Assembly: GCA_001938485.1 (NCBI GenBank)
Contig: MQRK01170105.1
Location: 1-57,314 of the forward strand
Direction: 5' to 3'
Length of the DNA: 57,314 nucleotides
Source: Girardia tigrina
Lineage: Eukaryota
The number at the start of each line of letters is the position of its first letter. The stretch's first letter is position 1. Below the pieces are notes generated by a model, which saw only the letters and a list, made by a program, of their open reading frames with translations, made no database searches and was not told where the DNA came from. Shown here one piece after another: positions 7,651 through 42,539 of this stretch. A program made the position numbers and the translations under genes.

Positions 7651-7689
7651 GATAATATATTTCGATGGATCTACCGTCATCTTCAGGTC
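7651..7689 (-). ncRNA. Minimal hammerhead motif in the inverted Penelope arm
   Basis: Minus strand GAC-CUGAAGA-U-GACGG(UAGAU)CCAUC-GAAA-UAUA-UU-AUC, with one stem II mismatch. Confidence 0.65.
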
Positions 7690-8588: not shown

Positions 8589-8849
8589 TATAAATATATT
8601 TTTTCATGGATTATTGTTGTTTTTAAAAGAAAATTATTATCCAGATTTCGTTTTATCAATAATAATATAAATAATTAGAATCTTAAAAGTACATATATTT
8701 TATATTAATTGTGTAGTGTATTATTTAATTTATGAAACAATACAAATTGACGTATTTATGCTTGTAAATACGTTAGAAATTTCCTTTTTCCGAAGGATTA
8801 AACTAATTTGAATGTTCAATTTTTAAAATGTATTAAAAATATTTTCAAA

Positions 8850-16813: not shown

Positions 16814-16917
16814 CTGTTTTCAGCAGTCTGCAGTTTTCCCCAGAGACTTACCGGTGGTAACAGAGTCTTGGCTTTGCTGGGCCCATTTTTTATGTCTTTA
16901 ATTTCTGTTGGGCTTAT
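16814..16917 (-). other. Unassigned structured repeat, copy C
   Basis: Minus strand AAUGGGCCCAGCA...CUGUUACCACCGGUAAGUCUCUGGG-GAAA-ACUGCAGACUGCUGAAAACA. Confidence 0.6.
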
Positions 16918-17290
16918 TGTTCGAAATACCCAAAGAAACATTTTTTCAAATCCAAAAAATAAAAATCGTTTCAATTGGCATCAAAATTATATTTCATCTC
17001 AATTAAATCAAAATTATTTTAATTAAAAAACTCGAACATTCAATCGCAAACCAAGTTGTAAATAATTGACAAAAATTGTTTTCAATTAATCTTTGAAAAA
17101 TCGAAAATGATCGAGAAAATTTCAACAATTTCAGACTCGACAACGCGGTTATCCAATAACATTTACACAAATACACCCGACAAGTAATCGCCAGGGTCCA
17201 ACCCAAACAAAATTCAAACAAAGAACTCTTTAAAAAAGATGGCAATTTTTTATTATAAACAAATAAACGCCATTTAAAAATATATTTTAG

Positions 17291-17329
17291 GATAATATAT
17301 TTCGACGGTTTAACCGTCATCATCAGATC
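17291..17329 (-). ncRNA. Minimal hammerhead ribozyme motif (best preserved Penelope copy)
   Basis: Minus strand GAU-CUGAUGA-U-GACGGU(UAA)ACCGUC-GAAA-UAUA-UU|AUC, with stem I GAU/AUC, 6-bp stem II and palindromic AUAUAU stem III. Confidence 0.8.
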
Positions 17330-17676
17330 ACTGATTATGTTGTTTTTATTAATTTTTATACATCGGCGAGACTGCCTATCATCTCTGCAAAAGGGTCCAA
17401 GAACACAGTCAAAAAAGGGAAAAGAGTAATATTGCTGAGCATAAAAAAACGTGTAAATGTAATATAAACATAAATGATTTTAAGATTTTGTGCAAGCATT
17501 TTAAAAATTATTGGGAGTGGTATGTGAAGCATTGTTGATAAGATTATGTGATCCTAAAATCAATGTTCAAGCAGCACTCTCAACTAATTTGTAAAGAGTT
17601 TTCGATTAGACTTACGTAAGTGATTGCATAATCATTCATTTCTTATATAAAAGCAATAAAAAAGAACATAATCAGT

Positions 17677-17716
17677 GATTTGATGATGACGGTTAAACCG
17701 TCGAAATATTTTATCC
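17677..17716 (+). ncRNA. Mutated hammerhead motif in the sense Penelope arm
   Basis: UUGAUGA (C3 to U) with the same stem II and GAAA. The stem III palindrome is broken. Confidence 0.6.
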
Positions 17717-19293
17717 TAAAATATATTTTTAAATGGCGTGTATTTGTTTATAAAGAACTCTTTGTCAGTGTTTTTTTTAATTTGTGTGTTATTTAAATTT
17801 GAAACATTTATTAATTATCTGAATAATCATTTTTTAAATTTTTTTTATTAATTTTTATTTAACTTATTTAGTTCCTTTCTTAGTTTAACATTTCATTATA
17901 TCACTCAAGAAATATATTATTCAGCAAATGTTATTCAAAAGTAAAACAATTTGTACGACATTTAACAACAATTTTAAAACAATTGAACCTTGAAACATTT
18001 TGTTTTTGGATAGTAGAGGAGTCATTTAGAATATAAAATAAATATAATAAAAATAGAATTAGAAATTTAACTTGAAAGTATGAAAACCCTTCATAAAGAC
18101 AATGAAACGTTACATATTTCTTTCACTTTTCATTTTCTTTCTAGTCTCTTTTGTATTTTTATTTATACCTGTTGTAAAAATTCGTTTCTTCTGAAACTTA
18201 TTTCTATATATATCTCAAGGAACTAATTTTAAAGGACAATAATTATAAGACATGAGTTATAAAATGGTATTTTGGAAGAATTCGATAGCTAACCTCTTAA
18301 ACATGAGTAGTATATAAATATATATATATATATATATGACTATTGTGTTGATGATTCAAATAAAAAAACAAATTTGATTATTACACATTGAAAGATAATT
18401 TATCTTTAATTTAATTCTGTGTTTTGAAAAATAAAAAACAAAATAAATAATAAAAAATCTAATCGGTATAAATCAGAAATAACAATAAAATATTTACCAT
18501 AAAATTCATAGATTAACTTTGAATATAAGGGAGACGTTGTAACATGCTAATATATAAATAAGCATATAACAGTAAAGCAGAATTGATAACCTTTACCTGA
18601 GTCATAGTAAACGTTTAGTTTGAAATCTTGGTTCAAAACAAAATAACTTCATTATATGCTTCATTAGATTATCTTTTTTTCTGGACTTCTTCTTTTACCT
18701 TTGGGTAAGGGATGATGATCTACATGTGGTTTGATTTCACCTAATTGGCGTGGTTAAATTAAATTAATTAAACTCTCTACAAAGTTATAATTAAACAACG
18801 AATGTTGGAAAACATTAAAATTTGAGTTTTCTTTGTCAAAGCCTTCAATCCCGCTACATTGTTCAACTTTTAAATTTGAAATTTTAGAGGGTGGGGTAAT
18901 TACCCCTTTACCACCCCCTTCTGGATCCACCTTTGGTTATAATGTAACAAAAAATCATGAATATAATCGAAGCAATGTTTGGAATAGAAGCATAAATTGC
19001 CGAGACAAACATTAAACTATTTAATAAAATCATGACATTTCGAAATATTTAAAAAAAAAAATAAATGCAGTAAAATCAATTTGAAAAAATAAAACGAAAC
19101 TTTAATATTTCGATTTTCTAACTAAAAATACTCATTAAAATGTGTAAAGTAATTTTAAAAAACAAATATTAGATAAAAGATTTTTAATTATTAATAATGA
19201 TAAAATTTTTTTTTCAATCGTAATTAAAATTGCTCATTAATAATTATTATTTTAAATATTGTATTTCTTTTTACTTTTAACTGTATAATGTCC

Positions 19294-19411
19294 ATGTTCC
19301 GCCTGATTCTTAGTTTGCCCCAAGAATCGGACGGAGGTAACATCGTTACCCAACGAATACTAATTTTCGCTGTCGTGCTGGTGCCCATTGATATAGATAA
19401 TGTGACGGTTT
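19294..19411 (-). other. Unassigned structured repeat, copy B
   Basis: Minus strand CCGUCACAUUAUCUAUAUCAAUGGGCACCAGCACGACAGCGAAAAUU...GAUGUUACCUCCGUCCGAUUCUUGGG-GCAA-ACUAAGAAUCAGGCGGAACA. Alignable end to end with 33766-33882. Confidence 0.75.
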
Positions 19412-21154
19412 GTGACTGTAAAAATAAAGAATTAGCTAATTTGTAGAATTCTTTATTTTTACAATAGATAAAAGTATCAACAATGACACCAATTGTAATG
19501 GAAAATGAGAGTGAGTGGATCACTATCTTCCATTAACTAAATAAATTAACAAACACAAAATAATCTGGAAAATTTATTAACAAAAGGTTGTTTCAGGATT
19601 GTTGGTATTAGTGGTATGAAATAAAAAGATTGTTTTCCGGAGTTCCAAATCAGCAATAAGTATATTTCCGTACCAGTAAAAATGTGTCATCTGAAATCAT
19701 CAACATCAGATTTGCTGAACAAATGTTGATTCCATGTTTAGACTGCTACTAAACATTCATCGGGTGAAACTCACTATGCGAGTGGTTTAGGTGTCGGTAG
19801 TTTGATGGAAATTCGTCGGCGTGAGTGCCAAGTGAGACAAATTTCCAGTACTGACTAAACCAGAAAAAAACCGATAAATGATTAGTGCTCCGGTTGGATG
19901 CGTCGCAGCTAATGTTATGGAAATCGATTTGTTGATTTTCTCCATGCGACAAAGATCCGCTGACATTGACTGGTACCGTATACATACATACTAATTTAGG
20001 ATGGTAGAAATCTAGTATTTCGACCCATGGTCGACGTATTATGTGTTTGCATAGTGGAACATGTAGCAACATACATAAAAATAACATTGTCGTGCTTTAA
20101 ACAAAATATACTCACTTGTTACAGGAAATGAAAGACAGATTAATTAAATCAAACTCTTAATAAAAGTTACACATAAAAATTCGAATTATCGGTATGATAG
20201 TTAAAAATAATCATAATAAACCGTGCCTTATGATATTTGTGAGGTAGTCAATCGATTAATTGATGGTTATGACACAACTGCATGTTATCACAGGATCTGA
20301 CATTGAATTCTCTCTTTTAATTTGACAAATTCTGGCGGGTTGTGTTCCGTTAAACGAACCAATTTTATCCAGTATGACACTAATGCAATCCGAATCCGAG
20401 GATCTCCAACGTTGTATTTCGGATAAAAAACACGTCGTTTGCCGTCTTTTTTTCCTCGTGCAGTGGAAACAACTGCTTTTACCTATTAAAAATCTGATTA
20501 GAAATGATCTCTAGCGATAGACATTGACAACTTGGATTTGGATTTAATTCAATTGATTTTTTTTTAATTTTTTAAATCCATAATTTAATATATATATATA
20601 TATATATAAATATTAATGAAAATGTAGAATCACTACAGTGACAATCAATTTTTACTTCGAACATTTATTGATAATAGACAATTTGAATCAGAGGTAGCAA
20701 ATAGAAGTTATGCTTAGAATTAATTTATTTGTTCAAAGTATAATACATGAATCACTCGGTCTTCAAAAATTAAGAATGAACAATATCATAAACTACATTC
20801 ATTATTCAAAGATTCACACAAAACTTTTGTTTCAAATTCAAAACAATAATCACTTTTTGTCCCACCATCTGTACATTGTCACCAACAAAAAAAAACGAAA
20901 CTCAATCAGAATCAGAATTCTTTTCTTTTTGATTAATTGTGATTAATTAATTTTGATTATCAATCGAAATTTTTTCCAGCAAATCAAATTCGACGGAACG
21001 AACCAAACAGACATTGACGTCACAAATTACGTGATTCAACAACAAAATTTAATGATTTTTTTTAAAACTGAATTAAATTCAGTTAATTTCGAATTCTTTC
21101 CGAATTAATATTTTTTCTTTTTCTTTTTGATTTCTTTTTCAACTTATTATTTAT

Positions 21155-21192
<38 letters not shown>

Positions 21193-24100
21193 ATCCAAAC
21201 CAATAAAATTCTCAGAGATTGTCATTCATGATATAGGAAGTTATGAATAGAATTGAAAGTTCGAGGCAAGGTGGAGAAGGCTGAGAGATATAATAATAAT
21301 AACAATGTATAAATAATACTATGATACTATTCCAATCCCAAACAGTCCATTAAATATAAAGTTTTTAATTTTGATTTAAAGGTTTAATTATATATCGTAA
21401 TTGCTAAGAATTTATTAAGATGTAATTTGTCTTGTTTTGAAAATTATAATAATAGAACATATTAATATAGTTATATAAATAATATTATAATATTAATAAA
21501 ATTATAATATTAAAATATTAAACATATAACAATATTAATAATATTATAATGTTAATAATATTAATGAGGATAATAATAGTAGACAGTTACTATATTTTTT
21601 TCTATTTTTCTTAAAAAGATATTCTAGAACAAAATACTACTAAAATTATTGAGTTGTGGAAAGAATAAAAAGATGTTCAGACAAATAAAGTATAAAGGAG
21701 GAAATATCTGTCGACAGAAATCGGTAATTAGTTTAGTTGTGATACCCTTTATTAACGTAAAGATCTTTTGCAAAAATTTTTGGCGAAAATCATTCTTTTG
21801 ATATGTTTCAAATGAAACAGAAAACATATTTATTGTCTTCATTTTGTGATTTGTATCTTAAAAGAGATTTAATTGTATTACAACAACAGAAAAAGGAAAT
21901 ACGTTTTTTGCTTGTTTTTACTTTATTTTCTTATTTCAAAAGAAACAATAATTAATTTTGTTCTCCTGTAAAACATAAATAGTTCAAAGAATCTGATAAT
22001 ATGTTTATTTGACCATATAAATTTAATTAGGATTTATTTATATATTTATATTTTTTTCTTTTAATATTTTTTTAATTTATATATTTTTTATATATTATTT
22101 GATTCGATTTGAAAATTATAAGTTATTATTAAAAACCAATTAAATATAAGTATTTTAGTTTTTAATATTATAATTATAATTACATTTATATGTTACTTAT
22201 AATATTATTTATATAAAATATAATGAAACAACAAATAATTGAAAAAATAATAATTTATAAATTATCTATATTTAATTTGGTAGAATAGTTTTGTATTGAA
22301 AGAATCACAAAGTGAAACGGTTTTGATATTAATATAACATTTGTTTAATATCGAGTTGAACAGAAGTTTTAGTTCTATTTTCAAAAGATGCAACTTCCAT
22401 TACTTCTCCATTTGAAGTTTTAATTTTATTTTATGACGTGTATTCCGAGAGGTGACATTTCGACGTTTTTTATTCAGAATAGATAAGTTGGTTTAACTTT
22501 TAGAAAATTGGTGTATATTTTAAATGAGAAAAGCATCGTAAGAAAAACACCGTACAAATAGCAAAAAAGATATTGTATGTTCATAGAGATGCAGCAGTAG
22601 ACGAGCAAATAATTAGACTGATATTTGAAAGGTTTTGAACTGGACATTTTATCTTGAAAGATAAGCAATCAAAAGAAGGCCTTTAGAAAACGATAATGAG
22701 AAAATTGTTGTAATTTATGAGAAAAAAAATAATGGATCGATTATCGGTCCATAATTTGCACCTGAAACGCCATAAAATCGATTCATTTTTGAAAAAAAGA
22801 TTATTACAAGTGATTATATATGAATGGTGTTTTTGCAGTCTCTAGGTTGCCCCCGTCATTTATTTTAACTTTTCAAATCAAGTAATCAGTCATAAAGTTT
22901 GAACATAATTTTTCGAAACAACAATCAAAGGCAGGCTTTCACTAAATATCATTTAAAAACCAAATAAAACGCCTTATCACTCACTCTGATTGGTTAGCGA
23001 ATCAGAATGAATCTAGTTCCTTCGAAATATACAGTCATTTTCGCACTAAGTTCGAATACTTCAATTAATTATTCATCGGCTCTCAGGTCAATCCAATCCG
23101 AACAAATAAGTCTTTGTTCTGTAGTTTGAATTCAAATTTTAATAATAATAATATTTTTAATAATTAATTTAAGTTCTGTTTATTCTATGTGTATGCATAT
23201 TTATTTACATACATATAACATTAATAAAGCGAAATTATATCAGCAATAGTGACATTCAAAATTAATAAAATAAAGATTTTGAATAACAATAAACGATTTA
23301 ATATTGATAGATTGTCTTTGAGGCATGAAAGGGCAGCATTTGAATATAGATAGAAATGCAAAATATAAATAAAGATTATAATTTTTAAATTCTAAAACAA
23401 ATGGTTTACAACAATGTTGAGAGAAATCAAGATTAGCACCTTTATCATCTCAAAACTAATCTTCTGATAAGCGTTATTTGGTACAATCTGCAGGTTGCCC
23501 TAGAAACTGAACGATGGTAGCAAAGTCATTACACTGGATTTGCTGCTTTGTTCAATATATAATTCAATATAATTCAAATTATTATTTTTTATTTTAATTT
23601 AAATTGTTTATTTTTATTTGTATTCATATTTTTATATTTATACATATATAATCATAAAAAAACAGAATAGATCAGCGAATAAGCAATTCAAAATAAAAAA
23701 AGAACTATTCAAATCTGAGTTGAACGGTCGTCTTTGGACAGAAAAGGAGACAGAAGAGAAAATAATTGGAAGGGATTCTTTATTTAAGGCTTCTTTCAAA
23801 CTACTAAACGATAAGTTCTGGTTGGTTTTGTTCAATATTGAATAATGCCATGGAAACATTTGTAGAAAAGTGACCAGAATTGGTAAACAAAAAACGTTAT
23901 GTTTTATCAAACAACTCTAGAATCAACGCTTTTGTGAATCAAGTAAAAAAACTCTAATGCAACACATCCCTTATTCACTAAACCTTGAATCTTCTAGCAA
24001 AATACTTACATTTTGGTCTTTTTGCTAAGAAAGATTGAAGTTCTAGGATGAATGAATTCTAAAGCTGTTTGGTAACAAAATACTGATTAAAATGCTCAAT

Positions 24101-24929
24101 TATCATTGAATAAAGGTTCATTTGTATTTGATGAAAAAATATTTCTTTGTATCTAATTCAAAACTAAAAACTTTATTCACAAATTAATTTTAATTAAAAG
24201 TACATTAATTAAAAAAATAACTTAAATTATTTATGAAATATAATACGATGTAACAGACAATATTTTTGTGTTATTTTTTTAAAATTTAATTAGTAATATA
24301 TAAATATATAAATATATAATATTTAAATATTTTTATTCAGCGACATTTCTCTTTTTAAAAAAAATAGTTTTACAACTGTTAATTTAAGTTGATATTTCCG
24401 TCTATTTGTCATTTTTTCTGTCACATTTTTTCTTGTAATTTAGTATTTTTTAAAATAAATTCAAAAGATGTTTCCTTTTAGTTAGAGAAGCGAAGAAAAA
24501 ATCAAAAAATAAAATTCTGATTTCATTAAGAAGAATAAGGAATAATATCTATCTCGATGGTATTCCCAATAAGTATAAGACAATCTACATTGCGAAATTT
24601 ATTTGTATCGTAAATTTAAGAAAATAACCGAATGATTTTGAAAAAAAATTAAAAATTACTAAAAAATTAAAGAAAATTTATTTTAATTAACTAAATTAAA
24701 TTTCTCATTACAAAAAAACTTTGGTTCTCCCATCCTTCTTATTTTGTATTAATAAATATTAATCTAACTTATATAAACATTGTAATAATGATGGCAAATT
24801 GTTTTTAAAATATACAAAGTGCTCACCATAATTTATTGTTGTTAATTTCAACGAATATCCTTAAAATATACTAAAAATATTTTTTTAACTTTAAAAATTG
24901 TGTATAAATTATGTAAGAAAGGAAATTTG

Positions 24930-25150
24930 TTCATCCATAAATCTATCTGTTCAGATGGTTTATGTTACAATTTAGTTTATCATTTTCAATGCAATTGATA
25001 TGACGCAACATACATCGGAGAGACATGTCGTCATCTATGTAAGAGAAATCAGGAACATAATCAAAAGGAAAGTAACAGTAAATTTGCTCAACATAAAAAG
25101 CATTGTTTAAATAGTAGGATGGTTTAAGTAATTTTAGGATTTTGTGCTGA
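24930..25150 (+). pseudogene. Penelope GIY-YIG relic
   Basis: VYHFQCN*YDATYIGETCRHLCKRNQEHNQKESNSKFAQHKKHC. Confidence 0.8.
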
Positions 25151-26038
25151 CAGTTTAATAAGAACTGAGTGTTTTGAATTCAAATCTTAAATTTCTATTA
25201 TATTTAAATTATTATTTATATGCAACATTGAATCTCTCTCATCTGCTCTAGAGTCATAAACTCAATCTGTGATTTGAATGACAATTTCTAAAAAGATTTT
25301 ATCTCCTTTTGTTTTGTTATATAAGTATATATTGTATAAAATAATAATTAAAAAATAAATAATAATATAAAAATTTTAAATAAAAGAAAAAATTTCAAAA
25401 AAATGTGTAAATAATTTTAAGATTATTAAAAATTTATTCGAAATCGAGTTATGTGACTAATTGTCTTCGTTTTCAGTTAGTTTTTGTTGTTGTTATTTAT
25501 TCGCTATGCCCGATTGAAGGTCAGTTTGGTGTCCTGCTGGTGTGTATCGAATTTTTTTGAGCCGAGTGATGAGATGAAATGGTAAATAACTAGCCCTGAT
25601 TGGCTGCCCAATCAAAGCGAGTTACTAAATCAAATTATTTACCGCTTTTATCGATTTAAAAAAAATTTAATTCGTTTTTGTCTTTAATGCAGATTTTCAA
25701 ACTGTTTTTTTATTTTTCAAACGATTTATGCTTAATTTGTGGCTTGCTATAATCGAAATATCGAGGATAACTTTTTAAAGTGAACATTTATCATAGCTAC
25801 TGTATTTCTTTATTTTAAAGGACAAAAAGTCAAATTTTTTAAATTGCTTTTAGTTTGTCTGAAGATTATCGGAACAGATTATTTAATGAAAATCTGTTAA
25901 CTCAATCGTCAAAATAAAGTTTATCAATTAACAAATTTTATCTTTGACGAACATTTTGAATTATTATATTCTTATTTTCAAATTTGATTCAAATTATCAT
26001 CTTCAATTTAAATTTTGATAATGAAGACAATAATAAAA

Positions 26039-26143
26039 GACGGGCCCAGCAAAATTAATCCGAGATCTTTTTCAATCATTCTTAAATCGCTACTGCTACT
26101 ACCTCCCAGTATTCGGGGAAACTCGTAGATCGGGAGAAATACT
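26039..26143 (+). other. Unassigned structured repeat, copy D
   Basis: GACGGGCCCAGCA...UGCUACUACCUCCCAGUAUUCGGG-GAAA-CUCGUAGAUCGGGAGAAAUA. Confidence 0.55.
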
Positions 26144-26345
26144 GAGAGTGGTTAATGAAGCACTTATGATCAAATTTTTGTAAAGTCAATGTTCAAACAC
26201 TATCTTCTTAAACTTTACCAAAAGTACTTTTATAATTTTAAAATTACATAACAATTGCACAAATATTTTTTGGTAAATAAATTACAATATATTATTGTTC
26301 ATTTAGTCTGATGATGGTTGATCCGCCAAAATTAATAACAATACA
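26144..26345 (+). mobile_element. Decayed Penelope 3' tail with degenerate hammerhead
   Basis: gagagtg..tgaagcacttatgatcaaa..aaagtcaatgttcaaac matches the other PLE tails. ctgatgatggttgatccgccaaaa at ~26308 is a decayed core. Confidence 0.55.
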
Positions 26346-28764
26346 TCGAATTTATCTTTAATTTTTGTTTATTTCTATTTATCAAACATGACTACTAAAT
26401 CGATTATAAAACTCCAATCTTAACAGATTTTGCTTCTGTTTAATAAAATCGATTTCTAAAATCTTATCAGATATAATAGTTAGTGAGTCTGGTTTATGAA
26501 TGATGGAAATGAGTATCTAAAATTATTCATCGCACTGATAATATGAGAATATATGTTAATCTTTTTAATATCTTATTCAAATTTCGTTATTAATAAGTGT
26601 TCCTTAAAGCAAAGAAAATTTGGTTAAAATTTATTACTTATTTTGTTACTGAATTAACTAAAAAATCATGGGTCACATGTGGTTACATTCATATTATCTT
26701 ATTATAAATTTACCTGAAGGTTGAGCAAATCATTTTGGAAGCAGAAAATATATTTAAAAATATGTAGAAACATTTATCATACCGAATATTGTTTCAAAAT
26801 TAGAGAGTTTTGATTAACTAAGAATATTAATTATTATAATTTAATAAACCATACCCCAGAACATAAACCAAAGAATTATATTTGTTATTTTTCCTTATAA
26901 TATAAAAAAGAAAATAGACAGCATTTTAATACAGGTTTAATATTTTATATTATTAAATTATTTTGCTTTGAGATTATATTTAAAAAAATTTTTTTGATAA
27001 AAACAAAATTGATTTATTAAAACATTATTGCAACAATATTTTTTAAATCTAGATAACAATGTTAATGTTCAAATTATTTTTCATATTTTATAATGAGAAA
27101 GATAAAAAATTACAATATTTATATTATTTTGAATTTAATGGCAATTAAAATAGAGAAACAATAATATTACTTTTTCATTTATTTTTCATTAAATTCAAAT
27201 AGAAGATACAATTCTCTCATTAAAGTTTTGACTAAATTATATTTTTTATAGATTATTTTATATTTTAGTTTTTTTATTAATAATTCAAAAGAAAGTTCTT
27301 GTAATTATGATACAGTTATTTTTTTAATTATAAATTATTAAATGAGAAAATTATAAATTCTAAAATCTCTAGAAAAAAAGTTTTAAAAATATTTCATAGA
27401 CAAATCAGAGACTTTTATATATAGCGGAAAATACTGTTAAATAAAACAGAAAGTACGTAAAAAAGAGATTAAACCTGACAAAGTTATTTTAAGGATTAAA
27501 GCCCCTAAATCGGACGGAATGATATGAAAAAGCGAAAAGCAGAAAATATAATCATAAAATCGCATAAATTATGATTTTCTTTAAAAGATTTTCAAAACTT
27601 TTTGCAAACTATAAATGTGGTTTTAAAATAATTTTAATGAAGGAAACCTGACTAAAAACTCATTTTCTGTTAGTAAATAAAATCATATAAGTAAATACAA
27701 TCCAAATAAGCTAGAAAATAAAGGATTAAAAATTAAAAATTAAAAAATCCTCCTTCCAAAAATTTTATTGAATTCTAGCATAACATAAGTAACAAAAACC
27801 GATAATATTTTCAACGTTCACAGTTTAATAAAATAATCTGTCATTAAAAAATTTATTTTAAAATTTGATTTTTTAAAACTTTATTTATTTTTAAATTAAA
27901 TATAAATTATATAAATTATACATTATATAATAAAATTATAGAAACTTAATCATAAAAAATAATTAATTAAATAAAGAGGGAAATGTAACATGATTAATTT
28001 GTGATTAAAATATTCAATTAATTTTTATTAATAAATTGGAATAATAATAATTAAAATTAATTAATATTTATGTTCTCATAATTTACCGAGATTTACAGAA
28101 TAAAAAAATTCCCTAAAGTATTTTTAATAAATGAAAGCAGACTTTAACATATATATTTGTTTAATTTACGAATTTATAATAATTACAATTTATAATTACA
28201 ATATTTATGTTAATTAATCTAAAACAACATTTTATATATTTAATATTTTAAAACCAGGATCAGTTTAGATATAAATAAATTAATAAAAGAAAATAATTTT
28301 CTCCTTTTAATGGGAAGAAGGAAGACTGAATGTTGAAGAAGAATATTTTTTTATATTTCGGAAATTGTTTTTTTTAGAATTAGGAGGAAAGTATCAAATT
28401 TTACCTCAATAAAACTCTTGGAGGTCAAGCAACAAATTACTTATATTAACAACATCAATATGAGTTTTACAACATTTATTAATATTCATTATTTGACATT
28501 TTTCTTGATCCATATATTTCTGAGTTCATACTAATTATTTTCAATAAATGAAAATCCGTTAATAAAAATTATTAATTATAAAGAATCTAATTGGTTAAAA
28601 TTAAATCTAAACATTTTTTAAAAAAGAACATATTAAATTAATATATTAAAATTTTAAATTACATTAAAAAAATAAATAATAAATTCAAAAATTATTTTAA
28701 ATCTTTTTACTTTAAAATTAAATTAAATTATTTTTAATTAGTAGGAATCAAAGAAAATACCAAT

Positions 28765-28870
28765 CAGTCATCTGTGTAGGAGAGGCACAATCCGAATCAA
28801 CATTCTACATGCACAATATCAACACACAATTCAAAACATTCCTCACAACTTACTTGTCCACAATCAAATC
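28765..28870. repeat. Dispersed repeat fragment, homologous to 330-430
   Basis: Shares the catctg..taggagaggcacaatcc..atcaacat and attcctcacaa motifs with 330-430. Confidence 0.55.
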
Positions 28871-29763
28871 TTTATTAAATTTCACAGAAGCATAAAGCTA
28901 ATAAATTCTTAACGATGTCAAATCTCTTTCTTGATACTCTTACCACTTAATTACTTTTTTTTATATTTTACAAAGGTTATTAAAATGTATTACAAAGTCA
29001 TTTGTAATCTTCATTTCTTTTCATTTTGTTTTTTTTTATTTATCCCTGAAGATTGAAACAGATAATTCCACAAAAAAAAGCTTTTAAGAAAAAAGATTCT
29101 TTGTATAATATTTATAAATTTTATCTTACTACGATTCAAATAGAAAAATATAATTGTTCATTCCAAAGTCTTAACGGAAAGATTCTATCTATCTTACCTC
29201 TTTATTCTTTATAATGCACATTATATAATATTATCACAATCAAATATTTCTCTAATTTATACTATTTTTATTTTGAGATATGTAATTTCTGAACACAAAA
29301 CCAAAAAATTTTATTATTTTATCTATTTGTAAATTCTTTTGTAAAATTCTTTTCTTTTTGAAGAAATTTATCATTATCTTTCCTAAACATTTAACATTGT
29401 TTATTATAAAACATTTTAATGCCTCAAAATTTGGGTGTTATCCGTGAATGATTGTTTTTCATTACAATAGATTTGATTAAAAAGAAACAAATGAAAAATA
29501 AAACATATTTTTATCTTTTTTGTTGTAGAAAAACGTAGTTGTTAATAAATTATAATCAGTTTACAAATTAATTTTGAAACTTAGATCATAATACTGTATC
29601 GACCTTATCAAATACTATTCTTAATACTTAATGAAATACGATAATTTTTGGAATTCTAACAGTGGAAATACGTACTCAAAAACTGAAGATTTACCGTGAG
29701 TTAGAACTGATTTTCTTATGAGTCTTCAATGGTTTAAATAAATAATAACTTAAAAAAAATATT

Positions 29764-30480
29764 TTAGGTCGTCAAATATGAAATTTGTAGAACTGAAGTC
29801 AAGTTTATTGATAATTTACGAATACAAATATTTTTCATTAATCTCAGTATGCAACCATATCGACACACTTTTCCATTTGAGCGACAGCTTGTGAGGCCAT
29901 TTGAATAAAGATTTTGTTGGGGAAAATCTATAAATTTCTGGAAGTTCACTTTTATGGCATCTTCGGAATTGAATTGTCTTGGAGCACGATCGAAGTTGAC
30001 GTGTTTACAAAACACGGCTGTGTTTCTTTGAGTTTTTGCATCGTATTTTTTAGTTGCTTTCAGTAGGCATCTTCTGTGATCAAAAAATCAGATTTCATTA
30101 AGACTCACGATCAGCTTCTATTGATGAATGTAGTAATTTACACTATGTTTTGGGGCTTCATTCCTATTCATTCACCTTGTTGAACGTTTGCAATTATCAT
30201 ATTAGATCGACTTTTTGTCACATCGATTAAAAATGTGATAAATTTTATAAAGAAAAAGCATCATACAGCAACGTTCAAATACTTTCGTTTCTGCCTTTCC
30301 TTCAAATAATGTGGTATCTAATTATTCACCCGATGTTAGACAAGTAATTTAATATTGTTTGCTTTGTAACAGCAAACATTGGTGATAAATCAAGAGCACT
30401 CTGTGATGCATTCGACTCCATGGTTACTTTCATTTAGAATATTATGGGTCGACAATTCTCAAATTGCTAGGAAAATGAAT
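29764..30480 (-). mobile_element. Decayed mariner transposase with one TIR
   Basis: Minus strand VTKQTILNYLSNIG...CDKKSI*YDNCKRSTR*MNRNEAPKH...IHQ*KLIVS (compare CDEKWIxYDNRKRSxQW...PK...HQKKxMV), then AY*KQLKNTMQKLKETQP and FNSEDAIKVNFQKFID..LYSNGL. TIR-like ttaggtcgtcaaatatgaaat at 29764. Confidence 0.8.
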
Positions 30481-32392
30481 TTGTGGACCTCATACAGAAG
30501 TAAGTAATGCAAAAGGGATAATGTATCAAGAAATAAATCTCTTTTGCATTGAAACTTTGAAAAAAATATCATTTTATTCTGGTTTTCTTTCCTTGAAAAG
30601 TGTTCGCTGATTTCCTTCATAAAGACTTCTGTTCAAGTTGATTCAACAATTTTTTCACTATTTCAATCGCTTAACCACTTTGAGTAAACTCTGTAAAGTC
30701 TTGTAAAGTTCATGTCATTTTGAGAACTCGATTCACAGCCTCAAATTTTACCAAATTTCTTTGACCGTCTTTACCTTAAACTAGAATATCTGTTCGATGA
30801 TTGCTCATCCAATCTCAATCACATACATAGCAACTTCTCAGATCAGCCCTTGTTCTAATCACCAAAATCCCCATTCTATGGCGCCAATTTTGAACTCAAC
30901 GCGTCTATCGGCCTCCATGGTACATCAATATGATCTGTGATTGACACCGTTATTCTAACAGATTCAAAGCTCAAATATTTGAGCTCTATAATTATGTCCT
31001 ATGTAAATAATATTGGTGTTTTTTAATTAAAACATTCTATTAGTAGAAATTAAATTTTCCGAAAAAATTATAAATTTAACACTTGTGATAACAAAAGTCT
31101 TTTTCTTACAAGTAAAAAATTAAATAAAAAGGCATTGTAAGAGATTAATACTTTTTATTATTATATTGAAAATTTATTTTAATTAGCTTAGAATAAAATA
31201 TATTTTATTAATAAAAACCATAAATAAATAAAATAATAAATTAGATAAAAAAAATGATAGAAATTTTTTTAACAAAAGAAAAAAATCTGAAACAGAATTG
31301 TTTCCATGAATTATTGTTGAAAAAAACAATACTCTTCTATTCAATTTATTAATTAATATTTCATTAAAATGTGGAATTGTTTTATTTTATTATTTTATCA
31401 ATTTCTTTTTCTCTACAATGGTTAATATTATATTTTTTCTATGATTTTATTGTCTAAATTTTCATTTCCCCAGGTAACAATAAATAATAATTACAGAAAA
31501 ACTTTATAAAATATGTGTTTATTAATATGCTTTTCCAAAATAATAACGTGAATTAGTTCAAAAATATTTTTAATAGATTTTTAAATATTTTTGATATTTA
31601 TTTTCATAAATGTATCAAAAAACATAAAAAAGATAGTCAAATATTTGTTTATTTTATTAATTTATTTTAAGTTTAATTTGAAATTTATTTAATATTATTT
31701 CTTTTAAAATCAATGCAACGTTTGTTAACAAACTTTTTGAAATATAATATTTTATTTTAATTTAATCATAAATTAAATAAATTTTCTATATAGCAGAAAT
31801 AAATATTTTATTGATTTATTAATATTAACATTCTCTTTCATTATTTTGATACAATATTTTTATAATTATTTTTGTCGATTTGTAAATTATTTTATTAGTT
31901 AAAGAAACAACTCATGTTCACATATGTTAGTGATAAAAAAACTGAGTCAATTAAAAATATAAATCGATTAAGGGTACCCAAAATTAATCAATATTTAATG
32001 CATGCTAAAATTTTGATATTATTTTGATATTATATTTTTAAATATATATTTTTTTAGTGTCTTAAAAAGAATTTTTAGTAACATAAAACTATAAATGCAC
32101 TTAACGGTTTTAAAAAACTTAGTTTTATTTTACAGAATTAGAACGTCTTATGACTCATCTGCGGCGTCGCGTACTCATCAATCATAAAATCAAAAAAACA
32201 AAAATTATCAATCAGCAACGATCAGTTAATGTAATGAAAAGAGTGAAATTAAAAATTTTCACTAATTGACTCAGATTGTTCTGATTAGCGAGGCAATCGA
32301 TTCGAAAATTTCAAATTTCCCAAAAAGGCACCCTCCAAATAATGCCCGACAATCTACATTTACACATGCACACTATGTCAATTCAAATACAC

Positions 32393-32790
32393 CAGTAGCG
32401 TCGCTAGGCGATGCTGGGGAAGCGGACCGCACCAAGTGACACAATCTCAGAGGGTGTCACCAAATGAAAAATAAATCGCGGAAATAACCCGACGTTAAGC
32501 TAAGGTTAACTAAAAAACACAGGTTATTCAGAGTCCATGACGTCAGTTTCCGGTTTAGAAATATTAAGTCATTTTATGTTGATTTGACTTTACCAGTAAT
32601 TTTATGCTATGATAAAGTAACGCACGCGTTCGTTGACTTGTTGTGAAATCATTCAAACGGAGCCGGTACATAGATGCTGTAGATAACCTACAAAAATGCA
32701 TTTACAATACATGTTGGGCGGATTGGGCTCCACTGCCTTCCCACTCAGAATAAATGTGAAGGGGTGACACCAACCCTAGCGACGCCACTA
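32393..32790. mobile_element. 398-bp non-autonomous hAT-type MITE
   Basis: TIRs cagtagcgtcgctagg / cctagcgacgccacta. Perfect 8-bp TSD aaatacac (32385-32392 and 32791-32798). Subterminal gtgacac repeats. Confidence 0.9.
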
Positions 32791-33765
32791 AAATACACTA
32801 AACCAGAACAAAGAAGTTTTTGTTCAAGTTTAAATTTTAACCCAAACTTTGAAAAATTTTAATATTTTAAAATAATAATTGTTTGGGATTCAAATTTTGG
32901 TTATTATTATATGTTGTTTCTATTAATATTATACTCAATTGAAAATATTTCATCTTTTTTCTACTATCGAAAGTTCAATTTAATCCTTTAGATGTAAAAT
33001 ACCAAGGAGATGAATGATAGTTAGGGGTAGTGAGGGAGAACTCTCATTTTTACACTACTATCGTCCATTTACAGTCAAATCTCCATCAATTTTATCTCCT
33101 CCCTGCTCATTAACATACAACTCATCCAAATACAATTTTCCTAATTTATTCACATACATTTCTTTTTACAAAATATAAATATTACTAGTAATAAATATTA
33201 AATAAAATAGAACAAAAAAGTAAAAGTAAAAAAATTCATTTTGTTTGAGTTGAATTGTGGTGTGATTTCGAGTTGAGTCACGTGAATGTTGTGACATCAA
33301 CATTATGCTTCCATTTGGTCAAAGCTGATTGACCGATGATGAAATCGATTCGTTAAAACAACAACAACTAATTTGATTTCGTCACAATAAAGGAAAGGGG
33401 ATCAATGACGGGGTAGTTTGGATTGCGTTTTCGTTTTGCGTCGAAAAATGATGAAAAACAATGACGATGATTATAATGTCGATAAAAAATTCGATTGAGA
33501 GTAAAAAATTCTTGTAAATTGGTGGTGAGCAGTTTTTTACGCGTCATCAGAAATATTTTGTTGATAATTTTACTCGCTGAAACCATTTTTTTGGTATAAT
33601 TGTGATACTGTTGTTCTTATTATTTTTTGAGTTCGAGTGATTCAATTTGATGATTTATGTGAATTGAGAGTACGGTATTCGAATCCGACTTGTCGAAACA
33701 TTTTGAACTAATAAAACTTTTCTGAGCTGAATTCAAATTGAATTATTTTTCAATAAATGTTCGAC

Positions 33766-33882
33766 GTAACCCGTCAGATTATCTATTCAATGGGCCAAGC
33801 ACGATAGCGAAAATTATTATCCGATGTGTATTGATGCTATCTCCTTCCGATTCTCGGGGTAACCTGAGGATCGGGTGGAACA
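33766..33882 (+). other. Unassigned structured repeat, copy A
   Basis: GUAACCCGUCAGAUUAUCUAUUCAAUGGGCCAAGCACGAUAGCGAAAAUU...GAUGCUAUCUCCUUCCGAUUCUCGGG-GUAA-CCUGAGGAUCGGGUGGAACA. Confidence 0.75.
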
Positions 33883-33965: not shown

Positions 33966-35338
33966 TCCTGCCCCCCCCAAAAGTCTTCACTCAGTACCTT
34001 TTTCATACTTTTAACTGGTCGTAATGAATTCTTTAACATTTAAACCCAAATAGAAAACAGAAGACAAAAGAGGCAAAGGAAAATTAGTATATAGTACAGT
34101 TTTCTTTAGCTCCTATGACTGTTCCTACGCGGTTTGACATAGAATCGACCAATTTTTTCAGGAGCTGTGGAAGAATATTTGCCCATTCTTTCCGCAGCTG
34201 AAGTTCTATTTCAGTGGGATTCCTTAGAAGCACCTGCCTTTTACGAACGAGTCGGTCTACTTCATCACATAGGAATTCGATTGGGTTCAAATTGGGGCTT
34301 TGTGGCATCCATTCCAGTACATTTATGTCACTTATTTCGAAGAAATCCTTAATGAGATGCGACGCATAGATTTGTGCCATAACGTGTTAGAAGAGCATAT
34401 CGGCAATTTCTGAGAGGAATGGAAGCGCTTCGTGTTCAAGGATTGCTCGGAACTCCATGGAATTCATGTTGTTAGTACACTTGACCAATGGGCCAGTACC
34501 CTTGACTGTGAAGTAACTCCAAAACATTATGGAGCCGCCGCCGTACTTGACTGTTGGAAGAACAAAATCAGGATGAAATCGTTCATCATTGCGCCGCCAT
34601 GGAAATTATCGTCCATCGGAATGGAAGAGTGTAAAACGGGACTCATCGCCCCATATAATTTTCTGCCAATCAGCAGAAGTCCAGATACGTCTGGCATTGC
34701 ACCAACGAAGACGCCGCATGCGAATGGCTTCTAAAATAAATGGTTTTCTTGCACATACTCTCCCGTAGAAATCCAAGAAATGCAGATTTCGGCGAACTGT
34801 ATACATGCTTGCCTGTTTGTGGCCTGCGTTGTACTCAGCAGTGATATGCGCCAAGGGCATGTCCCAGTTCTGCTTCAGAAGTCGAACAAGCTGTCGTTGG
34901 TCACGATTGCCCAAACATTTTGGTCGGTAAAATCGCTTCTTGTTTACATGACTGTACGTGCTGCGATACTTTCGGAGAAATGAATCAATTGTTAATTTTG
35001 GGTGACCAGTTAGTTGTGAAATTTCACTCTGAGATTTGTTGCACAGATGGAAGCCATAGATGATGCCCTTCTCAAAGTCCGTAAGCTCCTTTCGTAATTC
35101 CATGCTTAGCAATATAGTGAATAATGGTGAAATAGAAAAACGCTTCGTGCAATATCATTTCTGAGAAGTCTATTTTTAGAGAACCAATAGGATAACAGTA
35201 TAAACTTTGTCATTTCAATATACTGATAGTATGACAGCCTTATAATTCTTTGATTTAAGATGACTTTCCCAATACACTCATATAACATCAGGAAAGAGTC
35301 AAATACGCTTTTGACCGATGACTTTTGGTATGGCAGAG
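33966..35338 (-). mobile_element. Near full-length Tc1-family (DDE) DNA transposon; transposase frameshifted
   Basis: ORF 34606-35112 gives the HTH through ARKPF...WQKIIWGDESRF. A middle frame gives PTVKYGGGSIMFW. ORF 34084-34380 gives LEWMPQSPNLNPIEFL. Imperfect TIRs tcctgccccccccaaaagtc / gacttttggtatggcagag are flanked by TA. Confidence 0.92.
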
Positions 35339-35590: not shown

Positions 35591-36505
35591 ATATATAATG
35601 AAATAGCGTTCCTTTTGTTTCTTAAAAAAATACAGTTATCTTTAAAATTTATTTTACAAAACTTATAAAAATTGATTTATTTTAGAATATCGATATTGTC
35701 GGAATGATTACTAAAACTTGTTCAAATTTTGTTTGTTTTAAATACACATCAATAGCTTGTCTTATAACTAATATTTTTACTTCGATGAATTTGAATATTA
35801 ATGTAACGAACACTTAATAATTTGTTAGTAAAAAATATCAATATAGAAATTACATATAATTGTTTTGAAAATTAGTTTTTTTGTATAATTTTAAAAACAG
35901 GAAGATACTTATACTTTACGTTTTCACTTTTAGACAAAAATACGAAAACCTCAAGATAAAACTCATTTTTTTTAATTTCATGTCACAAAATTCAAAAAAA
36001 GATTTTTATTTTAAAATTTGCTTTTAATTCAACAAACAACTCAATCTGTAAAAAGTATATAAAAATGGACAACAACAACAATATGGCAGAATAATTAATA
36101 AATATGAAGTTACAAAACATTGGCAAGAAATGATAATTTTAATTATCTCTGTATTCCACAAATGTAATTTTGTTTTACCTGAAACTGGAGTCCATTTACA
36201 AGACATGAAATCATGTTAAAATAAAATCAAAATATTTATATAAAACAATATATACGCTCTGAAAAATTAAAATATATATCCACCACTGTTGGGTTCTTGA
36301 TCAATATTAGAATTCATAACACCAAAAATTTATTAATAACACAAATAACAATTATTTAAACAATTTTTCTTGAGGAACTTTTGTTTTCTTTTTTTCTGAC
36401 CAGATTTCTTATACATAAAAATATGGAATTATAAATAATGATAAGCCATTTATTAAAATGAAATTTTAGAAATTATTATTTTTATTATTTATAACTATTA
36501 TTTTT

Positions 36506-36762
36506 TTATTTTAGAATTACAATTCTCAAAATTAAAATTCAAAATATTATTCTTATTTTAGAAATAGAATTTTTGAATTTGAAATACAAAATATTATTCT
36601 ATTTCAGAATTACAATTCTGAAATTTAAAATACAAAATATTATTCTTATTTTAGAAATACAATTTTCAAATTTTAAAATACAAAATATTATTTTATTTCA
36701 GAATTACAATTCTGAAATTTAAAATACAAAATATTAGTCTTATTTTAGAAATACAAAAATAT
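36506..36762. repeat. AT-rich minisatellite, ~46-48 bp unit, ~5.5 copies
   Basis: Unit ttatttYagaaWtacaattYtSaaatttaaaatacaaaatattattc, with alternating A/B variants. Confidence 0.85.
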
Positions 36763-38412: not shown

Positions 38413-41076
38413 ATGAAATATTTTCAATTGAAACTAATTTTCTTTCACATATTATTTGAGATTTCCTTTCCGATCATTTGGACTCAAGAAATAACGTTCT
38501 ATGTCGTAGAGGAAAACAAAAATGATCTGATTCTGGGGAACATTAATTATTTCCTCGAAAATCAAATGAAAACCGATCCGAAATCCGCAGAGTTTCATTT
38601 TATTAGTAAATATATCTCCATAGATAACGTATCAAAAAACGTTCGAATGAAACAAGTCGTCGATGTGGACACGATTTGTTCCACGGATTCCGAATGTTGT
38701 GACCAGGACATTTGCGTAATTAAAACAAAAATCCTTCTTCAAGAACATAACCAGTATAAAGCAACATTTTTATTGAAACTAGAAATTAAAGACCTTGATG
38801 ATAATTATCCGGTTTTTAATGAAGAAAAGAAAATCATCAGTCTATCCGAAAAGATTCCACTCAACACTTCAATTTCCATTGAAGGAGCTATAGACAAGGA
38901 TTTTTCCAAGGAAAATCAGGAGAAGATTTATCAGTTTTTTGATAGTACTGAAACCTTCGAACTGTCGAACCCTCATTTCCATTCTTTATCAATTTTTGTC
39001 AGAAAGCGTTTAGATTATGAAACAAAAGAAATGTTCAATTGTTTGCTTAAGGTTTGCGATAGAAAATATCAAAATTGTGCTAATAAATCTATAATAATAA
39101 AAGTAAAAGATGAAAACGACAATGATCCAGTATTCGAAAGAAAATCTTATTTTGTGAAAATACCTGAAAATTTCCAAATCGGGAAAGAGATTCTAAAGGT
39201 TACAGCGAAAGACATTGATGGAGTTGGATATAATAGAACGAAATATGGTTTTCAGTCGGAGTATAACATAATGTCGGTTTTTAAAATTGATGAACAAAGC
39301 GGTGCAATAAGTCTGATAAATAATCTTTCAATTAATAAGAAAAGTAAATATAATTTTAAAGTTTACGCAATGGACGCTTCGTTTATCAGTTTCAAAAAAG
39401 ATTACACAGAAGTCGAAATAAACGTTGAAGATGTCAATGATAACTACCCTTTAATTTCCCTTCTTAACGGTCCAATGCCGAATTTATATTTGGTCGATAT
39501 TGAAGAAAACATTCCTCCGAAAACTTTGTTTTCCATTCAAGTTACCGATAAAGATCTGGGGAATAATTCCATTGTAGCGTGTTCCTTAAACACAGCCAAA
39601 GATGATCTTATTAAAATGGTTAAAATTGATTTAGAAATTTATCAAATTAATACTCAAAATCTTTTGGATTATGAAACAATTCAAACGATTGAAGGAGAGA
39701 TCCTTTGCTCGGATTCCGGAATTCCATCGTTATTATCGAGGAAACAGATCCAAATTAACATTATCGATGTGAATGAATATGAACCGGAAATAAAAAATTC
39801 CCCATTGATTATTAGTTTAAAGGAAAACATTCCCGAAAATAAGTATGTAATGAATATAGATGCTACTGATAGCGACAGAGGGGCTGTTCTGACGTATTAT
39901 CTAGATGAATCCAGCAAGGTTCATTTTTCCATTGATTCTCAAACTGGAAAGGTTCTAACAACAAACAACCCACTTGATAAAGAAACAAATGATTCTGTCA
40001 AATTCAAAGTTATAGTTACAGATAGTCTAAAAAATCCGTATACGGCAACAGTTGTCATAACGGTTAATATACTCGATCAAAATGATAATGCCCCACAGTT
40101 TATCCATGTCCGACCCTTCGTTGTTTATGAGAATCAGTTTATTTACACAAAATTAACCACGAAAATCGAAGCAAATGATGCTGATAAAGAAGAACTAAAT
40201 AGATCAATAATATTTCGTTTACTACATACATTTAATTGTCATATGGAAATGATCCATGACCAAGTGTTTGACGTAAACTGGCTGGGAGAAATCGAAACTG
40301 TAGCACTAATAGATCGAGAGAAAGATAATAATTATACTCTAACTATTCTCGCTCAAGATAGAGGTAATCCACCATTTTCAAACTCTATAAATATTACAAT
40401 CACAATTCAAGATATAAATGACAATGCACCGGTATGGATTTATCCATATGCGATTCCGCCTGTGGAACCGGAAGCCACAATTAATGTTTCTAGGGACGCT
40501 ACTCTAGGAACTGTTATAGCAAATCTTAAAGCATCAGATCAGGATTTAGATGATGCTGGTAAAGTCGGTTACTTAATCTTATCTTCTGACACTTATCATC
40601 GCAATGGTCATTTTTTACTTTTAAATGAAACTACTGGAACTTTGAGTATCTCCCAGTATCCTTTAATCTATGGAAGAAATCAGTTACGTATTCGAGCTCA
40701 TGATCATGGGCAGCCTCAATTATATACAGATGCTACACTAATTATAAATGTAATGCAGTCCAACGATAACCTATTTAGTGGTCTTAACATGGCTATTATA
40801 ATTGGAATGTTGTCGATCACTGCCCTAATTTCCCTTTTTCTAGTCATTGCTATCTTTTTTATTCGTCGAAGTCCAAATCCACCTCGAAATCATAGACTGT
40901 CAAGTCAAAATATCAGAAAAGATTGTGAAAGTACCTTGAAAAATTCCTATAAAGATCTGGATGAGTTTCCTGAAAAAATTGATTCTGTGTTTACCGACAA
41001 TGACTGCCACCACGTGTATTACCGGAATGGAAACAGCGAAACAAATCTACCCATGTATCCTCAATCATCCGTAGAA
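38413..41076 (+). CDS. Protocadherin (7 cadherin repeats, delta1-like architecture): large exon with signal peptide, ectodomain, TM and proximal cytoplasmic tail
   Basis: Hydrophobic N-terminus. Linkers DLDDNYP, DENDNDP, DVNDNYP, DVNEYEP, DQNDNAP and DINDNAP, plus a seventh repeat. LDYE/LDKE/IDRE and AxDxG motifs. TM MAIIIGMLSITALISLFLVIAIFFI. Acceptor tttttag lies directly before the ATG and a phase-0 donor GAA|GTACGT lies at 41077. The ORF tail to 41187 looks intronic. Confidence 0.93.
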
Positions 41077-42539
41077 GTACGTTATAAAATTTACTTGTTT
41101 TTACGTTTACATTTTTTAATAGTTTTTTTCAAAGACAAAGTGTTATTCTTTTCAAAATATTTAAAGATATTTTACATAATTTTCTAATTATTAGCTTTTC
41201 CGAAAATATGACCAAAGATATCCGAAACAAGACACGCCCTTTTATAATTGAAAATGAATATTTCTTAAAAATCCTTAATTTGGTCATTTGAGAGAATATA
41301 AAAAGTGTTACTACATCATTGTTTTGTAGCGAGATCTAATTAATTTGACTGTTATAAAAGTGTATCATGGATAGGTAAACGTTGATGCTACATTAACTAC
41401 GTGTTAGAAAGATTTGTTTAAAAGATTGTTCAAACTTTATCACAACTGAGTTATAAAGTTATTAAATCTTAAAATACTTGTATAAAATAAATGTATTATA
41501 CTTTTATTCTGAAAGAAACATGTGATATCCTAATACATTATTCAGTTGCTCTGAACCAGTACCATCTTGGGCACAAAACTCTAAGCTGTTATCTCCAGAT
41601 GGCTTGCCCAAAGCAACCCACATATAATTATATATCGTTATATTAAATAAAATAAAAATAATTAAATAATCTAATTAATAAACATGTGCTGATTGGTTAA
41701 AATATTTAATTCAAAAAAATAATAATGGCTAATTTACCCCTGAAGACTTCGAAAATTGAAACTTAATACATATAACAAACTGACTGTATTACGAGCTATT
41801 TTCTTGCAATATTTCGAGTTTTTTATTGATCAAGTTACAAACTAGTTATTTAACATTGAGAAGTAATAATACTTAATATATAATATTATCAGAGTCAAAT
41901 CAACCTGAATATTCTAAACTATGAGATTAGATTACAATTATAAAGTAACTTATATTTATTGTTCACCTTCAAACACATTTTTCTTTTTACAAGATTCACA
42001 ATACATTTAGCATTCCGTTCAACTGTTGTAGTTAATACAATTTTATTGAATAATATTTATATTTTTTATTTATATAATTATACTAGAAGAGGATTTAGTA
42101 CATAGTCAATTATAACTAAGTTCACTTTTACTATTATATAATACAAATCTGTTTTATTAAATACAAATCCAAATAAAGAGAAGAGACTATTTAAAGTGTA
42201 ATTTTCAATTTCTTAAAAAGCATAAGTGAGGATACAAGATTGTTAATTTTATACAATTGCAAGAGTAAATGTAATTAGCAAGACGATTTTTGAGAAAATA
42301 ATAAACCTGAAATTAAATTACATTTTACAAACGATACTCAGCAAGATTATATTGGTAAAATATCGGTGGACGAAAAAAATAAAGAAAAATATAACTTTTA
42401 TTATTATAATCGACATAAAGTCAGACAATTGAAGGAAGCAAAGAATTATAGAAGGTCTTCGAAAACGTGTTACTTTGGAAGAAAAAAATAAAGTGAGTGA
42501 ACAATTTATCAAATATGTAACTTAGAAACCAAATTTAGT

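Follow-up and report, generated by a model that had tools for sequence, protein, structure and literature searches.

A candidate extended primer-tRNA binding site at the ends of BEL/Pao long terminal repeats in Girardia tigrina

BEL/Pao LTR ends in the window and the genome

An earlier note on a 57,314-nucleotide stretch of the Girardia tigrina genome (assembly GCA_001938485.1, contig MQRK01170105.1; hereafter the window, whose coordinates are used throughout) had described four diverged copies of a structured motif and suggested either a new structured RNA, possibly a ribozyme, or an end-signal of a retroelement. We find that the motif is the last ~95 nt of the long terminal repeats (LTRs) of BEL/Pao retrotransposons and not a free-standing RNA, and that its conserved boxes are complementary to the 5' half of the initiator methionine tRNA (tRNA-iMet), a match absent from that note. 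[quoted passage not shown] The boxes stand in this order within the LTR end and are followed by a hairpin with a GNRA loop and a terminal CA.

All four copies were confirmed, positions and strands alike, by a covariance model trained on 41 copies that all came from outside the window. Scores were 65.4 bits at 33830-33882(+), 63.8 at 19295-19347(-) and 36.3 at 16815-16867(-), with the weakest of the four at 26089-26141(+) (22.0 bits; E 0.0014, a rough value); the reverse strand of the two top-scoring copies reached 9.9 bits. The model also identified a fifth, previously overlooked copy at 23475-23527(-) with 33.4 bits.

Copy 2 is a solo LTR, TGT...ACA, at 19295..21344(-), with a perfect 5-bp target duplication (21345-21349 and 19290-19294). 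Its box A (19375..19388) carries a 1-nt insertion and matches the tRNA at 9/13 positions when ungapped, and box B is followed by a 16-bp hairpin with a GCAA loop (~19315-19318) and the terminal CA (19295..19347). Nested within this LTR is a 1.2-kb TGT...ACA solo-LTR-like insertion (19417..20637(-)) that has its own perfect 5-bp duplication and an end without the motif. Copy 3 is a second solo LTR, TGT...TA, at 25170..26141(+), likewise with a perfect 5-bp duplication (25165-25169 and 26142-26146), a box A at 26040..26052 (11/13), and box B with a decayed hairpin and GAAA loop at 26089..26141. Copy 4, a solo-type LTR (TGT...ACA) at 32880..33882(+), has flanks that match at only 3/5 positions, a box A at 33790..33802 (12/13), and box B, a hairpin with a GUAA loop (~33859-33862) and the terminal CA at 33830..33882. 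Copy 1 is probably a solo LTR at 16815..18385(-), its end set by the covariance model and its 5' start placed, unconfirmed by relatives, at a candidate TGT at 18385; the flanks match 4/5, a TA-repeat lies downstream, and the LTR is split by a GIY-YIG/Penelope-like remnant at 17253-17753. Box A of copy 1 (16874..16886) is antisense to the tRNA at 12/13 positions, and box B, the GNRA hairpin and the terminal CA occupy 16815..16867. Copy 5 retains a decayed box B and hairpin (23475..23527(-)), and its box A is not recognizable (7/13). Because they are solo LTRs without a PBS, the window copies are decaying leftovers. Copies 2 and 4 were also considered as two inverted ends of one element, a pairing rejected given the separate LTR start in each.

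Some features previously described in these copies need correction. The CC/GG helix upstream of the motif is common to copies 2 and 4 as members of one LTR family and is not conserved between families. ACA or AUA had been said to follow the hairpin; copies 1, 2 and 4 do end in CA, and copy 3 ends in TA. That the stems differ in sequence but still pair holds across the genome, with 89% pairing over 78 distinct rows, and holds less well in the window, where the stems of copies 1 and 3 have decayed and copies 1 and 2 have a mismatch at the closing pair.

A high copy number in the genome (1.43 Gb, ~25% GC) had been expected, and the searches bear this out: a 31-letter motif pattern has 233 exact matches and a pattern of box A plus box B at least 551 strict matches, with 0 for the control of each. 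The true number is probably in the thousands, in an assembly that also contains duplicate contigs. Among 60 loci, downstream flanks are common only to near-identical duplicates, while the loci group by upstream sequence into 9 clusters, with 17 singletons; the upstream families start with TGT, 0.45-1.2 kb from the motif. The CA lies at a fixed distance in 80 of the 86 ends that were used for tRNA matching, which were chosen on hairpin, loop and box B only, with box A unused. Nine of 16 solo-like LTRs with an identifiable start have flanks matching at 4-5 of 5 bp (shuffled mean 0.44, maximum 4), and none has a perfect duplication of 4 or 6 bp; all 16 were retained in this count, although one of them proves to be a 3' LTR and another a 5' LTR, and two have a common start. 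A single common PBS follows the motif in 17/30 loci (fetched with a pattern ending in TGG) and begins two bases past the end of the 5' LTR.

One locus (L152) shows the full layout, with two 444-bp LTRs that are 98% identical, a PBS, a polypurine tract and a perfect 5-bp duplication; purine tracts precede the 3' LTR at L027, L152 and L155. Behind the PBS lie genes encoding DUF1759, an Asp protease and Peptidase_A17, and DUF5641 lies ahead of a 3' LTR. DUF1759, Peptidase_A17 and DUF5641 exceed the Pfam cut-offs, for elements with ends of the copy-2/4 type, and nearly all of 90 protein homologs have BEL/Pao domains, the best being 33-37% identical. In a relative of copy 3 (L082), only the ubiquitin domain that it shares with other elements (see below) was detected. 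The copy-1 subfamily yielded no coding region and is therefore assigned to BEL/Pao, provisionally, by the shared motif. These target duplications, PBS and genes support the earlier suggestion of a retroelement end-signal. Helitron ends, terminal inverted repeats and ends of short interspersed nuclear elements were dropped as candidates given the TG...CA ends, 5-bp duplications, PBS and purine tract.

Some of these elements carry additional coding sequence. A ubiquitin domain lies directly before Gag at L155:1731-2351(+), L090:1525-2610(+), L188, L198, L205, L082, L138, L208 and L131, in some cases preceded by an HSP90 fragment or leucine-rich repeats, and ubiquitin is also present in 4/7 best database homologs, one of them with HSP90. 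No description of a ubiquitin-Gag arrangement in BEL elements was found in our literature search. Coding-looking pieces lie directly upstream of the motif at L031 and L049, within the LTR body, and at L048, where the LTR start was not located; the L031 piece resembles what we take to be an alpha/beta-hydrolase exon set, and these pieces are possible cases of host-gene capture within LTRs.

Elsewhere in the window, GIY-YIG-like remnants (Pfam E 0.0009, below cut-off) occur at 7614-8625, 17253-17753 and 46994-47930 and also at 25010-25101. They are flanked by 60-115-bp inverted repeats, in which inspection by eye suggests hammerhead-like words, although nothing there was matched by Rfam; the remnants are probably Penelope-like elements. 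A Tc1/mariner transposase remnant and two broken gypsy-type gag/pol remnants lie at 34084-35154(-), 44050-45407(+) and 54458-56678(+), an AT-rich tandem repeat with a 47-nt period at 36485-36756, and a 924-codon open frame with cadherin-type repeats, presumably protocadherin-like, at 38413-41187(+).

Complementarity to the initiator tRNA

Three tRNA-Met(CAT) genes at one locus (L163) have A1:U72 and three G-C anticodon-stem pairs, which are marks of initiator tRNAs. They also have A54 and A60, given as initiator features in passages of PMC10275265. The 3' 18 nt of this tRNA have their complement in the PBS, with matches at 17-18 of 18 positions in 35/38 hairpin-type junctions (15 directly and 20 with a short bulge); the search had preset the first 9 of these letters. 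The PBS-junction search had itself returned 86 hits, eight of them box B on the opposite strand and about two dozen due to chance, and the 38 hairpin-type junctions were picked from it by eye. Two further kinds of locus carry iMet sequence: 5'-truncated tRNA-iMet pieces, one with CCA after it in the DNA and some in tandem, which are probable retrocopies (L149, L147, L148, L150, L162), and tandem ~340-bp units with an iMet PBS in each, resembling a tandem non-coding LTR element (L134-L137; G000:C21274).

Box A matches the tRNA at 11 or more of 13 positions in 67/86 ends, compared with 0-1 in shuffles and 0 on the other strand. When every 13-mer of the tRNA was slid over the 73 nt upstream of each end, one main peak appeared at nt 23-35 and a smaller one at the D-arm. 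The latter corresponds to box D, which pairs at 8 or more of 9 positions in 64/86 ends (0-5 in shuffles) and lies at one fixed offset in 38/39. From nt 19 to nt 1, the tRNA can be laid along the LTR end in a single ungapped register in 76/86 ends, ending at the base of the hairpin. Pairing in this register is 85-100% from nt 18 to nt 1, with exceptions at nt 16, 9 and 6; the partners of nt 17 and nt 18 pair with the tRNA in 76/76 and 75/76. The AGCA:UGYU pairing proposed earlier arises as a by-product, since each word mirrors a part of one and the same tRNA (nt 24-27 and nt 1-4).

At two neighboring positions, neither of which was used for selection, nt 8 is paired in 75/76 and nt 9 in only 10/76, and box A ends at the last anticodon base, nt 35, with nt 36 matched in 7/82. 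Since G9 and position 37 are often modified in eukaryotic tRNA, according to passages of PMC10275265, the gaps at these positions would be those expected from pairing with the mature tRNA. Boxes A and D are separated by 8-24 nt, versus 4 in the tRNA. An A[A/T]TAAA hexamer lies within 25 nt upstream of box A in 38/82 ends (background 100/920), and because such a polyA-type hexamer is often found just upstream, we place the motif tentatively near the R/U5 junction of the transcript, with the boxes perhaps in the RNA. Box A sits 84-100 nt inside the LTR, and the 18-nt 3'-end PBS follows.

The boxes recur across LTRs with unalignable upstream sequence. When copies were sorted by their unalignable upstream LTR into 35 groups, which are not fully independent of one another, members with box A were present in 26 groups and members with box D in 31. 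Taking one copy per group, substitutions that keep a wobble pair are more frequent, as a proportion, than their mirror images, with C>U at 52/243 (21%) versus G>A at 4/91 (4%) and A>G at 5/30 (17%) versus U>C at 5/122 (4%), in copies that had been selected with G-U counted among the pairs of box D and the hairpin, which favors this result. Together with the hairpin pairing, these transitions support the claim of selection on RNA pairing of the plus strand.

Other families primed by tRNA-iMet carry different pieces of the complementarity. Four with the same PBS and no long hairpin (L115, L122, L125 and L201, the last a BEL/Pao element by DUF1759) have an exact 11-13-nt D-arm complement beside a box-B-like word, whereas L128, L138, L142 and L143 have other short tRNA-complementary or anti-PBS words, also with no long hairpin, and L123, L130, L131, L139 and L208 have little beyond the palindromic part of box A. 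Because families lacking the hairpin but sharing the PBS have different tRNA-complementary pieces, complementarity to the tRNA 5' half is, as far as sequence comparison goes, not tied to the GNRA hairpin. A pattern of box A plus PBS gave 29 chance-like matches in metagenome collections (28 matching at most 13/18 PBS letters and one 16) and 0 in viral sequences, collections poor in animal DNA and therefore uninformative on distribution.

Hairpin, proposed PBS lid and alternative explanations

The hairpin is conserved in its loop and in its pairing. A GNRA loop is present in 78/83 aligned copies, in line with the earlier note; many of these loci were fetched with patterns fixing GCAA, and of the 20 copies with another loop, 15 remain GNRA. 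Double changes occur in 8/16 pairs, the covariation score is above all 500 shuffles, and G-U outnumbers A-C by 126 to 21 with one copy per group. Box B and the PBS are paired in 90% of cells of the helix between them, with a predicted pairing probability above 0.8 in 27/38 leaders. By nearest-neighbor estimates, which exclude tRNA modifications and topology, the median binding energy of the tRNA is roughly +1 kcal/mol at the PBS alone versus -28 with the LTR boxes.

From these sequences and predicted folds, we think it probable that the LTR end acts as an extended binding site for the primer tRNA, equipped with its own lid over the PBS that is opened by strand exchange. In the free RNA, folding predicts that the hairpin brings box B beside the PBS and that the two pair. 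With the help of Gag or nucleocapsid, the primer tRNA would then exchange strands, its 3' 18 nt occupying the PBS and its released 5' half occupying boxes B, D and A. Pairing of the 5' half would pay for opening both the lid and the tRNA, and reverse transcription would then copy through the hairpin. A stronger version is possible, though we put it forward tentatively: that selection has made the LTR end an antisense counterpart of the entire tRNA-iMet 5' half, skipping the modified bases G9 and position 37, that the primer is opened up nearly in full, and that the 5' half or a free 5' fragment unlocks the PBS. If true, retrotransposon priming would be licensed by the tRNA 5' half and shielded from 3' tRNA fragments.

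A number of points weigh against a lid opened by the primer tRNA, besides the limits given above for the groups, the wobble counts and the energies. Box D is lacking in the copy-1 subfamily (copy 1 and its relatives) and is not demonstrable in any copy in the window, where the best matches are 5-6/9 and out of place. Within the register, the partner of nt 6 is mismatched in 63/76 and that of nt 16 in 51/76; the tRNA model does not account for the mismatch at nt 6, a position that follows the PBS instead in half of the copies. Wobble bias is not seen in box A (C>U 18, G>A 13), within which lies an 8-nt palindrome. Covariation in the hairpin is moderate: cells with double changes number 30 versus 7.6 in shuffles, but a control slid by +2 reaches 29, and the count of covarying pairs is not above shuffles (104/500). 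The single informative column of the box B:PBS helix is unpaired in 19/38, and a simple cofold, which is unable to form both helices, gave against a shuffled control a clear win in 2 of 6 leaders, a slight one in 1, a tie in 2 and a loss in 1. Finally, that the boxes are in the RNA is a presumption; three small runs presumed to be RNA yielded only short pieces on L154 and are uninformative on expression.

Could the intramolecular fold alone be what matters? In that case boxes B and D would pair with the PBS and its extension, the lid would keep off 3' tRNA fragments or prevent premature priming, and complementarity to the tRNA 5' half would be a relic of a captured tRNA cDNA, an origin that the colinearity with nt 35 to 1 does suggest. 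Box B equals the tRNA 3' strand and is thus anti-PBS by construction, the ACC after it can pair with the PBS only, and box D is predicted to pair with the bulged PBS extension in L198 and L154. However, box A is left unexplained, the partners of nt 17-18, nearly invariant in their match to the tRNA, have none in the PBS extension, and the boxes persist across groups with unalignable neighboring LTR despite the variable A-D spacer. We consider this explanation unlikely.

The palindrome and the lack of wobble bias in box A would suit a dimerization or packaging signal, or a protein-binding or polyadenylation element, its tRNA match being partly coincidence via a common palindrome. Retroviral dimerization initiation sites are palindromic. 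The position of box A just past a polyA-type hexamer and the five iMet-PBS families that retain little but the palindrome point the same way, as does the PAL-mediated dimerization proposed for Ty1 in passages of PMC4974528. Yet conservation exceeds the palindrome by 4-5 nt, as the tRNA dictates (nt 24-27 are paired in 74-81/82), and boxes D and B follow in tRNA order, so that this account is quite improbable as a replacement for tRNA pairing; box A may have a dimerization role in addition to it.

A further proposal has boxes A, D and B bound by a second tRNA or by a free 5' half of a tRNA in place of the priming tRNA, with box B lifted and either the PBS exposed or two genomes bridged. The match spans nt 1-35, the size of 5' halves; the 5' half alone is predicted to bind with a median of -17 kcal/mol, and in the cofold minimum of L198 the 5' half is paired while box B stays off the PBS. 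PIWI proteins bind 30-35 nt 5' halves in a planarian, although the relevant passages of PMC7962491 do not show iMet halves. A single tRNA for both roles is simpler and has precedent, and we regard a separate partner as very unlikely.

A self-cleaving ribozyme or independent structured RNA, as first suggested from the strand-specific hairpin and GNRA loop, and for which some LTR elements, the retrozymes, offer a parallel in carrying ribozymes (PMC4918200), is highly improbable: the Rfam scan of the window agrees with the earlier note in finding no known ribozyme family (nothing at gathering threshold, with 5 weak, unrelated hits, E up to 5), solo copies have one stable helix only, the hairpin, the terminal CA and complementarity with tRNA-iMet and the PBS cover the conserved letters, and the motif is a BEL/Pao LTR terminus, an annotated class of transposable-element end that the note itself had named as counting against novelty.

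Comparison with known systems

In copia and Ty5, the complement of the tRNA-iMet anticodon arm serves as the PBS for half-tRNA priming and lies just outside the LTR. Here box A lies within the LTR, stops at nt 35 and is accompanied by a normal 3'-end PBS; half-tRNA priming at box A is ruled out by this position and would also leave the LTR end uncopied. Helenus and Cassandra, terminal-repeat retrotransposons in miniature whose LTRs contain small-RNA sequence, are comparable in that tRNA-related sequence lies within an LTR; according to passages of PMC10886601, "not a few" of the LTRs in Repbase are similar to a portion of a tRNA. Helenus, as described there, is a non-autonomous element that retains Pol III boxes A and B and lacks complementarity to its PBS, whereas the present elements are protein-coding and have an antisense match, to the 5' half only, that pairs with the PBS. 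Identity with Helenus or TRIMp3, short non-coding elements with a sense-oriented Pol III promoter of tRNA origin in the LTR, was considered and rejected: the match is antisense and ends at nt 35, Gag-Pol is encoded, and ARAGORN finds no tRNA in the window.

The elements resemble BEL/Pao (Belpaoviridae) in their TG...CA LTRs, 5-bp duplication, PBS, polypurine tract and DUF1759/Peptidase_A17/DUF5641 domains. BEL families of a planarian are present in Repbase and in the "Flow" group, according to passages of PMC3118150, a survey in whose main text "primer" and "tRNA" have 0 occurrences; passages of an LTR-structure survey (PMC3601003) include no BEL/Pao clade among its models. No description of a tRNA-mirroring LTR end in BEL/Pao was found in the literature searched, a scope that left out subscription journals, Repbase reports and supplements. 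Initiation of reverse transcription in BEL/Pao has been little studied, extended primer contacts being documented mainly in Ty1, Ty3, gypsy and retroviruses. A natural RNA of ~120 nt that is predicted to bind ~48 of 75 tRNA nt and to conceal its own PBS would offer a direct in vitro test system, one that bears on primer selection, shielding of the PBS from tRNA fragments and the shaping of retroelement sequence by tRNA modifications. A practical rule would be to seek antisense tRNA 5' halves in LTR ends.

The closest parallels are the multipartite binding sites of Ty1 and Ty3, which also use a tRNA-iMet primer and have element sequence outside the PBS complementary to tRNA arms, serving primer packaging and initiation (passages of PMC5371799, PMC4974528 and PMC3592414). 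As described in those passages, the boxes of Ty1 lie 3' of a 10-nt PBS and those of Ty3 in U3, both binding the T and D arms; here the PBS extends over all 18 nt, and the boxes are located within the LTR on the 5' side of the PBS, in an arrangement colinear with nt 35 to 1. The same passages describe the tRNA 5' end as remaining unpaired in Ty1, whereas here the acceptor 5' strand and the anticodon arm are matched and the boxes double as the predicted PBS lid. The HIV-1 primer activation signal (excerpts of PMC1865047) and the second tRNA-Lys site of gypsy (excerpts of PMC1635307) are alike in being second tRNA-pairing sites gated by RNA folding. Going by the same excerpts, the gypsy site is 11 nt, compared with ~30 nt of tRNA 5' half matched here, and in HIV the second site is masked, whereas here the PBS itself is predicted to be masked. 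As judged from its sequence, the tRNA-mirroring LTR end thus differs from the Ty1, Ty3 and HIV systems in the place and extent of the complementarity and in the pairing of the tRNA 5' end.

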